This document shows, piece by piece, positions 61,796 through 64,000 of a stretch of 64,000 bases of DNA (position 1 is the first letter of the stretch; the number at the start of each line of letters is the position of its first letter). The stretch comes from Qipengyuania sp. (GTDB taxonomy: Bacteria; Pseudomonadota; Alphaproteobacteria; Sphingomonadales; Sphingomonadaceae): the NCBI RefSeq assembly GCF_964227205.1, contig NZ_CAXQVB010000006.1:118579-182578 (forward strand), read 5' to 3'. The notes under the pieces were generated by a model. That model saw only the letters and a program-made list of their open reading frames with translations. It was not told where the DNA came from and ran no database searches. The translations under genes were made by a program, and so were the position numbers.

Positions 61796-62284
61796 ATGGC
61801 AGTTGCAATCCGTCTTTCGCGTGGTGGTGCCAAGAAGCGCCCCTACTACCGCATCGTCGTTGCCGACTCGCGTTCGGCGCGTGACGGCAAGTATCTCGAG
61901 CAGATCGGCACCTACAATCCGATGCTGCCGAAGGATTCGGGCGAGCGCGTGAAGCTCAACGAAGACCGCGCGCGTCACTGGCTCTCGGTCGGCGCGCAGC
62001 CGAGCGACCGCGTCCACCGCTTCCTCGATGCCGCCGGCATCCTCGAGCGTGCGCCGAAGAACAACCCGAAGAAGGGCGAACCGGGCGAAGCCGCCAAGGA
62101 ACGCGCCGAGGAAAAGGCCGCCAAGATCGCTGAAGCCGAAGAAGCCAAAAAGGCTGCCGAGGAAGAAGCCAAGGCTGCCGCCGAAGCTCCGGCTGAAGAA
62201 GCTGCTGCCGAAGAGGCTCCGGCCGAAGAAGCCGCTGCCGAAGAAGCACCGGCTGAAGAAGCCACCGAAGACAAGGGCGAGTAA
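61796..62284 (+). CDS. rpsP: 30S ribosomal protein S16 with an Ala/Glu-rich repeat tail
   Basis: [38 protein letters not shown]. Confidence 0.97.
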
Positions 62285-62292
62285 TCGCGCCC

Positions 62293-62790
62293 ATGTCGGA
62301 CAAGCCCGTCACGCTGGCAGCCGTCACCGGTGCGCATGGCGTGACGGGCGAAGTCCGCCTGAAGCTGTTCGGCGAGGGCGTCGATACGCTCAAGCCGCAG
62401 ACACGCTTCACCGCGGGGGAGTCGGGGGCGAGGCTGACTCTCACCAAGATCCGCAGCGACAACAAGGGCGGTGCCATCGCGCGCTTTGCCGAGGTGACCG
62501 ATCGCACCGCGGCAGAGCAGTTGCGCGGCACCGCCCTCTCGGTTTCGCGCGAGGCACTGCCCGCGTTGGAGGAGGGGGAATTCTATTTCTCCGACCTGAT
62601 CGATCTCGCCGTGGTCACCGACACGGGCGATGCCGTAGGTCGCGTCTGCGCGGTCGAGAATTACGGCGCCACCGACATCGTCGAGATCGAGAAGCCCGAC
62701 GGCAAGAAATTCATGGTCCCGCTGACCAGGCAGGCGGTGCCGGGCTGGACTGACACAGAACTCACTGTATCGCAGGACTTCATCGAATGA
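62293..62790 (+). CDS. rimM: Ribosome maturation factor RimM
   Basis: GAHGVTGEV, DRTAAEQLRG, EFYFSDLI, NYGATD, VP. Confidence 0.94.
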   Translation: MSDKPVTLAAVTGAHGVTGEVRLKLFGEGVDTLKPQTRFTAGESGARLTLTKIRSDNKGGAIARFAEVTDRTAAEQLRGTALSVSREALPALEEGEFYFSDLIDLAVVTDTGDAVGRVCAVENYGATDIVEIEKPDGKKFMVPLTRQAVPGWTDTELTVSQDFIE

Positions 62791-64000
62791 TTCCCAAGCC
62801 ACTGTCGGAAATTGAATGGGCAGACCTTGAGGCTTTGCAGCAAAGCGCTCGAGAGGAAGATGAGACCATTGAATATAAAGGTAGCCTATCCGGTGGGGCG
62901 AATTTTACCGCTTTGAGTGACAGTCAAAAGATCAAAGCAATTGATTCGATTGCGAAAGAAGCGATCGCGTTTCTGAATGCCAACGGGGGCGATATCGTCA
63001 TAGGGGCAAGAGAAGCTTCCAACGAAAAGCCTGTAATCGAAGCGTTTGCCGAGCTTGAAGATGTTCACAGTCTGGCCGATCGTCTGGCCCAAGCAGTGTC
63101 GGCGGTTATCGAACCATCTCAGAACCTTCTGGGCGTGAGGGCGGTGACGCAGGAGGGTGCGACCTCTGGGGTCATAATTGTGCGGGCTAGAAGCTCACTC
63201 AGGGCCCCTCATCGATCGTCGCGAAAAAAGGAATGCTATATTCGTCGTGGTCGAGAATCTGTCCCAATGTCGATGGATGAGATTCAGGACCTCACCCTGA
63301 GGCGAAAAGATATGCGAAATGACAGGCTCAATCGTCTTGCCGATTATGCAGACGAGCTTCATTCAAACACTCTTGGTCGGGTAGAGCTTCGACATGACCG
63401 TGCGCAGTTTCGACTCTGTTATATCCCGAGCAGCCCACTAGCGCTAGCGCTCGAACCAGAGGTACTGTCAGCGTTTCGAGGGACACAGCCAGTATTGAAA
63501 TCGGGCAACTACGAAACGAGCAATGATGTCTTTTCACGTAGATTACATGGACTTTGGAAACCTGTCCTTCGTGGGCGGAGCCAGCAAGACCATTTTCGCG
63601 GTGAAGACCGAGAGATGTTCGCTCGTCGACAGATATTCGAAAGCGGTGAACTAGTGGCTGACTTTTCGGCTCGCACTAAATTCGACAATACCCCTGCGGA
63701 CGGCTTAGCTGTTCATTATGAATGGTTTCTCGGGTTCGTGGCAAATTTCCTGACCGGAATATCGAAGGTCTCAGATGCGACGAACAACCCGCTCGAAGGC
63801 TTTCTGTCACTCTCTTATCGCTTTACCGGTAATGTTTGGCTCTCTTTCGGAGCTGACGGTTTCGGCGAGATGCATTCTCTTCCAAATGAGACGGGGTCAA
63901 TTCCTACGTTCGAAATTGCAGATCGCGGACAGCTGCCGGAAATTTTCCAGCAACTTCAAGTAGATTTGTGTGCACTCGCTGGCGAATTTGAGGAGCACCC
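62787..64000 (+). CDS. Schlafen/AlbA_2-domain protein, 3'-truncated by window; absent from the ORF track
   Basis: ATGA overlap with the rimM stop; hand-translated frame open to the window end: MIPKPLSEIEWADLEAL...REEDETIEYK...AIAFLNANGGDIVIG...APH...CYIRRGRESVPMSMDEI. Confidence 0.85.
   Translation, partial: MIPKPLSEIEWADLEALQQSAREEDETIEYKGSLSGGANFTALSDSQKIKAIDSIAKEAIAFLNANGGDIVIGAREASNEKPVIEAFAELEDVHSLADRLAQAVSAVIEPSQNLLGVRAVTQEGATSGVIIVRARSSLRAPHRSSRKKECYIRRGRESVPMSMDEIQDLTLRRKDMRNDRLNRLADYADELHSNTLGRVELRHDRAQFRLCYIPSSPLALALEPEVLSAFRGTQPVLKSGNYETSNDVFSRRLHGLWKPVLRGRSQQDHFRGEDREMFARRQIFESGELVADFSARTKFDNTPADGLAVHYEWFLGFVANFLTGISKVSDATNNPLEGFLSLSYRFTGNVWLSFGADGFGEMHSLPNETGSIPTFEIADRGQLPEIFQQLQVDLCALAGEFEEH

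Follow-up and report, generated by a model that had tools for sequence, protein, structure and literature searches.

The window analysed here is a stretch of 64,000 nucleotides (nt) from Qipengyuania sp. (RefSeq assembly GCF_964227205.1, contig NZ_CAXQVB010000006.1; G000:C6:118579-182578 in our numbering), and positions are window positions unless prefixed. It ends in an open reading frame (ORF) that follows rimM and whose product is predicted to join an N-terminal Schlafen/AlbA_2 nuclease-type domain to a hypervariable C-terminal domain, which related bacteria exchange as a cassette. Here we describe this gene, its junctions and its family, and propose, with a confidence a little better than even, that it encodes a stand-alone, auto-inhibited Schlafen endonuclease of transfer RNA (tRNA) or ribosomal RNA (rRNA) serving a conflict system, most plausibly one of anti-phage abortive infection. 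We prefer this reading, drawn from sequence comparison, because the family combines a nuclease with intact motifs, a private and exchanged hypervariable domain, presence in <1% of species with many alleles, AT-richness and the occurrence of VapBC pairs in the same chromosomal slot.

A preliminary description of the stretch had pointed to an unlisted ORF opening at an ATGA overlap with the rimM stop and staying open for more than 404 codons, more AT-rich than rimM, with TTA, CTA, ATA, AGA and CGA codons, and carrying E24-x4-E29-Y-K31, AFLNANGG-IVIG, APH and Y-RRG. All of this was borne out. The ORF measures 410 codons, the last six and the TAG being read from the assembly beyond the window, 19 nt past its end, and the residues E24, E29, Y30, K31, A61-F-L-N-A-N-G-G-D-I-V-I-G73, A140-P-H and Y151-I-R-R-G155 all stand where they had been placed. 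The guanine-cytosine (GC) content is 0.50-0.53 along the ORF (0.51 overall) against 0.64-0.67 in the flanks, with the drop confined to the ORF and an immediate recovery, in a genome of 64.9% GC of which just 0.14% of the 1.2-kb windows have a GC content of 0.51 or less. GC at third codon positions (GC3) is 0.48 in the ORF versus 0.72-0.83 in rimM, trmD and rplS, and the five codon types named above make up 24 of its 411 codons (5.8%) versus 23 of 2668 (0.9%) in eight genes of the neighbourhood. Nothing resembling a promoter or a terminator was found between rimM and the ORF. Because a promoter or spacer of its own is missing, the ORF is most likely translated from the rpsP-rimM mRNA through termination-reinitiation at the ATGA, with co-transcription and translational coupling to rimM to be expected; the richness in rare codons may hold the protein yield low.

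The N-terminal domain is assigned to the Schlafen/AlbA_2 nuclease type by sequence and by structural model alike. The only Pfam domain in the protein is PF04326 (SLFN_AlbA_2), matched along its full length (positions 1-118 of 118) by residues 24-162 with 50.4 bits against a cut-off of 25.3 (E=4e-13), and there is no GHKL (PF13749), helix-turn-helix (HTH), ATPase or Argonaute domain. AlphaFold2, supplied with 83 homologues, gave a model with a predicted local distance difference test (pLDDT) of 92.2 and a predicted template modelling score (pTM) of 0.80 (pLDDT 92 for the N domain). Foldseek matched the N domain to SLFN12, SLFN13, SLFN11, SLFN14, SLFN5 and the bacterial AlbA_2 domain 2kyy (7lre at E=5.9e-5; 2kyy with probability 1.00 and TMt 0.59; also 5yd0, 7zep, 9jn9 and 7q3z), and a profile search with the same domain returned SLFN13 (3.8e-8), SLFN11, CbCash (4.8e-5) and SLFN14. 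The fold and nuclease motif that had been suggested, and the PF04326 search and structure prediction of both domains proposed as a check, thus end with the N domain passing as Schlafen.

The residues expected of an active enzyme are kept. E24, E29 and K31 are invariant in alignments of 35 and 16 sequences and at least 90% conserved in 83 sequences; A61, F62, N64, G67, G68 and G73 of the Schlafen box are invariant, and the box aligns with SAFANTQGG of SLFN13/14. E76, the candidate third acidic metal ligand, is at least 90% conserved; in the alignments it falls on the D of the CbCash sequence G-V-I-D, but SLFN13 has the first D of its G-V-D-D displaced from it by one position. The A-P-H-R and R-R-G columns are conserved as well, with CPHE and YVRRG as their counterparts in CbCash. 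In CbCash the E17/D22/K24 triad is catalytic for tRNA cleavage, the substrates of Schlafens are tRNA and rRNA, and inactive Schlafens lose nuclease motif residues (PMC13462974); in RzAgo the active site is the E(x)4(D/E)xK motif, with D32 catalytic (10.64898/2026.05.29.728809). Judged by these motifs, the protein would be an RNase acting on tRNA or rRNA.

The rest of the protein is a different matter. Its C-terminal part, previously put at about 230 amino acids (aa), comes to about 215 aa, and it was rightly called uncharacterised, having no Pfam match, resembling no solved fold and being private to the family. AlphaFold2 modelled the domain alone with pLDDT 90.5 and pTM 0.89. The best match in the PDB reached E=0.03 with a template modelling (TM) score of <=0.37 (Hen1-N, Bet v1-like and hot-dog folds), and in BFVD there was a weak match to a putative TBP (E=4e-4, TM 0.27). 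A second Schlafen lobe was considered and rejected, the domain alone showing no Schlafen match. A profile of the C domain searched against 1.84 billion (1.84e9) representatives retrieved 51 proteins, all of the same architecture or fragments of it, and none in which the domain belongs to another architecture.

Sequence comparison within the family indicates that the two halves of the gene recombine independently. Over 3403 pairs of members the mean identity is 64% in the N domain versus 27% in the C domain, and among the 37 pairs with at least 90% identity in the N domain, 62% (23 pairs) have less than 40% in the C domain, for example P0013 and P0057 (N 96%, C 26%) or P0008 and P0077 (N 94%, C 17%). 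In some pairs the relation is reversed (N 59-64%, C 79-100%), as with P0077 and P0081 (N 63%, C 100%) or P0024 and P0074 (N 60%, C 84%). The loci L056 and L057 come from near-identical hosts, whose Ffh, RimM and TrmD proteins share 96%, 88% and 88% identity, and of their Schlafen proteins the N domains are 86% and the C domains 30% identical. In a sliding comparison of the two loci, nucleotide identity is 83-98% for most of rimM and 53-63% at its 3' end, 25-37% over the small upstream ORF (unrelated genes), 67-92% over the N-domain half, 32-57% over the C-domain half and 78-90% from the trmD ATG onward, with sharp breakpoints near aa 178 and at the ATG of trmD. Synonymous sites in the C half are saturated too, and on that account the difference reads as allele replacement, not as faster evolution in place.

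The slot that the gene occupies is constant within its clade. Flanks were obtained for about 25 loci and mapped with the proteins of this genome, most contigs of the family being too short for context. The gene lies between rimM and trmD at 14 of them (G000, L051, L054, L056, L057, L059, L066, L067, L069, L070, L071, L077, L078 and L079), directly after uvrA at five (L058, L061, L064, L065 and L068), and at other sites in L060, L063, the P0075 locus and the distant members of G117 and G119. When 89 proteins are placed in a maximum-likelihood tree, a rimM-slot clade (78 rows) separates from a uvrA-slot clade (nine rows) with 99/90 support; the rimM site label needs one change on it, and all 14 readable loci of the rimM-slot clade are in the rimM-trmD slot. 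The copy of this genome is sister to L051 (100/100), which belongs to a neighbouring lineage and likewise has the order rimM, ORF, convergent oxidoreductase. With its start codon the gene overlaps, or directly adjoins, the stop of whichever gene precedes it, be it rimM, an ORF of 83-85 aa, an ORF of 69-74 aa, a VapC toxin gene or uvrA, and the stop of the gene overlaps the trmD ATG in L054, L056, L057, L059, L077, L078 and L079. Members of the rimM-slot clade usually have ATGA overlaps, and with them probable coupling, at both ends.

Other small genes were seen in the same slot. Pairs of VapBC (a MazE/AbrB-type antitoxin and a PIN toxin) stand beside the Schlafen gene in L051 (10237-10886), L059 (1834-2564), L067 and L069, and a vapC remnant, its last ~30 nt only, lies upstream of the Schlafen ATG at ~3950-4000 of L077. 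Two mutually unrelated families of small ORFs, of low GC, joined by ATGA or GTGA overlaps and without a Pfam or PHROG match, occur between rimM and the Schlafen gene: one of 83-85 aa (MSYCRWLEGDLYAYKA...; L054 7753-8004, L057 5747-6004, L066 3760-3996) and one of 69-74 aa (...EEGCFLRLP(D/E)GW...; L056 7780-8004, L078 3795-4004). As cognate partners they were rejected, since they do not co-vary with the type of C domain and have no homologue in this genome. Nor did a pairing of the type II toxin-antitoxin kind appear, with no small partner ORF adjacent to the gene in this genome.

The local order in this genome is ffh, rpsP, rimM, the Schlafen ORF, a convergent pyridine-nucleotide-disulphide oxidoreductase ('TrxR-like'), a 110-aa membrane ORF, a nitrilase, a 104-aa membrane ORF, trmD, rplS and a DPP-IV-type peptidase, with the oxidoreductase stop overlapping that of the ORF and trmD 2.6 kb farther on. 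A convergent oxidoreductase follows rimM in nearly every species of the genus, and outside the genus rimM and trmD are adjacent. The preliminary description, noting that rimM is normally followed by trmD, had placed the ORF within an rpsP-rimM-(trmD) operon and asked for the identity of the downstream gene; once read, this proved to be the oxidoreductase rather than trmD. The ORF sits at the 3' end of the rpsP-rimM unit and is not inside rpsP-rimM-trmD, because the oxidoreductase already parts rimM from trmD in this genus.

The boundaries of the insertion were set by base-exact alignment with five congeners. Their empty site reads ...GACTTC GTCGAC TAG CGCCGCAGCGG, with the rimM TAG and the oxidoreductase stop overlapping in CTAG, and the filled site of this genome reads ...GACTTC ATCGA ATGA TTCCC ... 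CGGGAT TAG CGCCGCAGCGG, the ORF using the resident TAG as its stop. From the two sequences it follows that the extra DNA is the ORF and nothing more: relative to the congeners, the insert is the ORF alone, and it is scarless. Its surroundings showed neither direct nor inverted repeats, no integrase and nothing att-like, but only a 2-nt GA microhomology. Import by homologous recombination together with foreign flanks was considered and rejected, as the rimM 3' end resembles that of the nearest congener (G009 ...PGWTDTQLTISEHF; here ...PGWTDTELTVSQDF), and the oxidoreductase 3' end, being genus-typical, also disfavours donor flanks.

No homologue was found in 36 congeneric species and 24 other genomes of the order. 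An even sample across the order (401 genomes, further congeners included) held a homologue in three, this genome among them, and more than 50 congeners in total lack the gene and show a uniform empty site. A pattern search through 185,579 species genomes yielded five, from Sphingomonas, Sphingomonadales, Allosphingosinicella, an uncultured Sphingomonas and one 2.9-kb contig binned as Bryobacteraceae. In a collection of 5.8 billion proteins there were ~85 full-length homologues of ~410-420 aa at 33-55% identity, all with PF04326 and mostly on short metagenomic contigs; they form about 50 clusters at 50% identity and are almost all of Sphingomonadales type wherever flanks or organism names are known, host taxonomy being taken from a few named loci and from flank similarity. 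No full-length relative was found on known plasmids or phages, plasmid matches named 'ATP-binding protein' covering aa 1-186 only. The contig binned as Bryobacteraceae (L058; JANLPT010000405.1, 2.9 kb, a metagenome-assembled genome) bears the sole title outside Sphingomonadales; it carries a uvrA fragment and the Schlafen gene. As the contig is short and these two genes group with the uncultured Sphingomonas locus L061, the assignment is probably a binning error.

For this genome a recent gain after the split from its congeners is favoured, because the empty site is uniform in the congeners and the GC3 of the gene is un-ameliorated. An ancient presence with repeated exact loss is the less favoured but still tenable history, since the sister copy in L051 occupies the same junction and has diverged (55% identity) to a degree similar to rimM (62%). 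The gene had been described beforehand as solitary and horizontally acquired. It is indeed the sole copy in the genome and missing from all congeners searched, and its composition is foreign, but it is no one-off hitch-hiker, given the fidelity of its clade to the rimM-trmD slot. Comparing that junction across relatives, as had been recommended, gave slot fidelity within the clade and an empty site in congeners; a fixed site with host-like composition had been named as grounds for abandoning the earlier interpretation, and while the site does prove to be fixed for the protein family, its members never resemble their hosts in composition, and <1% of host species have the gene.

At every locus read, the gene lies 8-17 GC points under its flanking genes, with GC3 at 0.43-0.61 in the gene versus 0.62-0.95 in the flanks at 11 loci. 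The distant members show the same against their hosts (0.50 vs 0.59, and 0.35 vs 0.45 in a host of ~45% GC), and for this reason the offset appears to be relative to the host and not the mark of a single donor. A plasmid or phage reservoir was considered as its source, and none was found. The persistently low GC may come from cycling via AT-richer vectors, or it may arise because poorly translated codons are selected where a gene is read from a strongly expressed mRNA.

On the reading that we prefer, the protein would consist of a metal-dependent RNA endonuclease of AlbA_2 type and, fused to it, a C-terminal domain that diversifies fast. As specificity or regulatory module, this domain would keep the nuclease inactive until it senses a trigger arising from infection, which is probably a phage protein. 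The nuclease, once activated, possibly by oligomerisation as in other Schlafens, would cleave tRNA (or 16S rRNA) loops and so bring about translation arrest. The trigger and the role in defence are postulated from the architecture and variability of the family. rimM, the nuclease-coding half and trmD would act as homology arms between which strains swap cassettes of the C domain and of small upstream ORFs. Loci flanked by core genes are known to swap specificity cassettes in this manner, as in defence hot spots and the target-recognition domains of hsdS. They resemble the present case in their conserved flanks serving as homology arms, their divergent exchanged alleles and their patchy presence, and differ from it in that one of the arms is here supplied by the conserved half of the ORF itself, and the unit is probably translationally coupled in an essential operon.

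The kind of protein, a prokaryotic Schlafen nuclease with a sensor, is already known, and prokaryotic Schlafens pair one nuclease with many sensor domains (PMC13462974). The nearest likeness is to CbCash and the CRISPR-associated Schlafens (PMC13462974; PDB 9ylu), which share the N-terminal AlbA_2 domain with E-x4-(D/E)-x-K, N-x-x-G-G, P-H and Y-x-R-R-G followed by a C-terminal regulatory domain, and by analogy with which tRNA loop cleavage would be the expected output. Unlike there, this gene has no Csx15/CARF-type sensor and no type III CRISPR neighbourhood, its C domain is of another, unassigned fold, and it lies beside core genes. The architecture of a Schlafen domain and an unannotated C-terminal domain in one polypeptide has a published parallel too, in which neither the fidelity to the rimM-trmD and uvrA sites nor the shuffling of domains is described; restriction-modification genes were near the gene in none of the loci seen here. 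With SLFN-pAgo (RzAgo) and the 'Schlatpase' SLFN-GHKL, in which a sensor module licenses tRNA cleavage and oligomerisation forms the active cleft, it shares the nuclease motif and the Schlafen box, whereas here there is no GHKL ATPase (PF13749), HTH or Argonaute, and the protein has 410 aa versus >1000 aa (10.64898/2026.05.29.728809). The N-terminal nuclease domain of mammalian SLFN11/12/13/14 has the same catalytic-lobe fold, but those proteins hold two lobes per chain and the C domain here is no second lobe. We found no paper linking Schlafen/AlbA_2 proteins with rimM or trmD, and as far as we searched, novelty lies in the C domain, in the way the gene is embedded in and coupled to the operon, in its fidelity to the slot and in the exchange of cassettes at the level of domains.

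Several results weigh against a role in conflict. Of the PADLOC-DB 2.0 defence models only mad3 responded, at E=0.026 and 12 bits, and NCBIfam gave nothing. The contexts seen include no classical defence island, with no restriction-modification, CRISPR or integrase genes nearby, and the distant members in G117 and G119 are flanked by ordinary genes. No phage or plasmid copy was found that would account for the low GC. The nuclease half diverges in step with the core genes beside it in Sphingomonas-type hosts, and there the gene overlaps the trmD start, which also fits a stable operon member. HMMER aligns E24-K31 ambiguously with the catalytic residues of the mammalian proteins because the family has ~12 extra residues after K31; we take them as equivalent because the motif is identical and the Pfam model starts at E24. 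A stronger form of the proposal, which we hold as a tentative and rather doubtful extension, is that in Sphingomonadales the rimM-trmD slot serves as a locus dedicated to immune specificity and driven by recombination, with a Schlafen tRNase hard-wired into an essential translation operon by start and stop overlaps and the C domain as a new sensor fold. If so, the wiring itself may be functional, for example by guarding the translation apparatus or the status of 1-methylguanosine-37 (m1G37) tRNA, or by setting the dose according to the demand of ribosome biogenesis.

Under an explanation without conflict, the protein would be an accessory, translation-linked RNA-processing or quality-control factor working with RimM (30S maturation) or TrmD (tRNA m1G37), for example by clearing unmodified or damaged tRNA, and its co-expression with them would be by design. 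The constancy of the slot (14/14 loci), the ATGA overlaps with the trmD start in L054, L056, L057, L059, L077 and L078, the co-divergence of the N domain with rimM and trmD in L056/L057 and the action of Schlafens on tRNA and rRNA (PMC13462974) would all suit such a factor. We nevertheless regard it as unlikely for a gene that is present in <1% of the species of the order and missing from all congeners searched, and that has, unlike a housekeeping partner, a hypervariable recombining C domain and a lasting low GC; its sister clade sits after uvrA and others elsewhere, and in this genome an oxidoreductase, membrane ORFs and a nitrilase stand between it and trmD. Position might also be the whole story, with a selfish element wedged into the operon to no benefit of the host and removable safely only by base-exact deletion, the translation of its neighbours being coupled to a potentially toxic nuclease gene. 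The ORF-exact insert with overlaps at both ends, the composition that is never host-like, the VapBC addiction modules in the same slot and the lack of any partner or defence neighbours seen are what such an element would predict. We hold it to be quite unlikely, however, as ~85 members with 33-55% identity have kept all catalytic and structural invariants and the alleles of the C domain persist and change hands, which therefore speaks for selection on the function of the protein and not on position alone, and as no downstream gene depends on it in this genome, because the next gene is convergent.

Many AlbA_2 proteins carry the annotation putative DNA-binding protein or transcription regulator, and several homologues of the present one are named 'Putative DNA-binding domain' by the Joint Genome Institute (JGI). 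A non-catalytic, nucleic-acid-binding regulator would accord with these names, with the weak TBP-like match of the C-domain fold and with the wide association of AlbA_2 with HTH and ATPase partners (10.64898/2026.05.29.728809), yet it is very unlikely here: the full E(x)4ExK and E76 are conserved, though inactive Schlafens lose such residues (PMC13462974), an HTH or ATPase domain is lacking, and the TBP-like TM is just 0.27. Hardly credible, finally, is recently acquired DNA that is silent or decaying in this genome. The gene is species-specific, AT-rich and full of rare codons, as such DNA would be, but its 410-codon frame is intact and of full length versus all homologues, every invariant residue is kept, and its start-stop geometry is that of the family.

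Only in 2026 were prokaryotic Schlafen nucleases shown to act as immune effectors that cleave tRNA, and always in larger systems (type III CRISPR, Argonaute). If the preferred reading as a conflict endonuclease is true, the family would be a minimal single-protein Schlafen effector with a new, confidently predicted sensor-type domain, and its naturally swapped C-domain alleles on a constant nuclease would be material for mapping Schlafen triggers. Its way of life would be unusual for an accessory and probably toxic gene, with no DNA of its own, coupling in an essential operon of ribosome and tRNA maturation, and core genes as recombination arms, and it bears on how defence genes beyond classical islands are expressed, retained and exchanged. 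The features are listed in Table 1.

Table 1. Positions in the window of the Schlafen-type gene, its parts and its upstream neighbours
Feature	Position	Strand	Basis or remark
rpsP (ribosomal protein S16)	61796..62284	+	first gene of the transcription unit of the ORF; ORF call and tblastn synteny with relatives
rimM	62293..62790	+	final codons F-I-E, TGA here versus F-V-D, TAG in congeners
ATGA, overlap of Schlafen-type ORF start and rimM stop	62787..62790	+	AGGA 9 nt 5' of the ATG
Schlafen/AlbA_2-domain gene	62787..64000 (open at window end) = G000:C6:181365-182597	+	410 codons
N-terminal Schlafen/AlbA_2 nuclease-type domain (aa 1-175)	62787..63311	+	Pfam, AlphaFold2, Foldseek, profile search
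E24-D-E-T-I-E29-Y-K31, E(x)4(D/E)xK nuclease motif	62856..62879	+	conservation and cited motif
Schlafen box A61-F-L-N-A-N-G-G-D-I-V-I-G73 and E76 (candidate third acidic ligand)	62967..63014	+	
A140-P-H-R143 and R153-R-G155 motifs	63204..63251	+	invariant columns; alignment to 9ylu
Long linker helix (aa 163-192)	63273..63362	+	AlphaFold2 secondary structure; collapse of conservation and recombination breakpoint at ~aa 178-181
Family-specific hypervariable C-terminal alpha/beta domain (aa 196-410)	63372..64000	+	two sheet-plus-long-helix units

Further insertions were observed around the same genes. At the rimM/oxidoreductase junction, G009 (L035 3963-5373) and G001 (L039 1064-2470) carry another insert, of host-like GC and two genes, coding for a 184-aa protein and a membrane protein of 278-303 aa ending in GGCGGGCGGCGG, and the junction is therefore variable within the genus; G016 and G006 have gaps of 0.5 and 0.7 kb there. 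The 110-aa membrane ORF between oxidoreductase and nitrilase (L002 2579-2911, just beyond the window; GC 0.53) had no tblastn match in any congener locus examined and is another small species-specific insert in the rimM-trmD interval. The trmD gene, outside the window, contains an in-frame insert of ~130 bp at aa ~77-117 (L002 4435-4560; G000:C6:~185430-185565), which is common to the congeners G014, G003 and G009 and missing from most others. It is palindromic (74% match to its own reverse complement), has at least eight more copies in the genome (C2, C4; 70-88% identity), and looks like a repetitive extragenic palindromic (REP) or miniature inverted-repeat transposable element (MITE)-like element in an essential gene.

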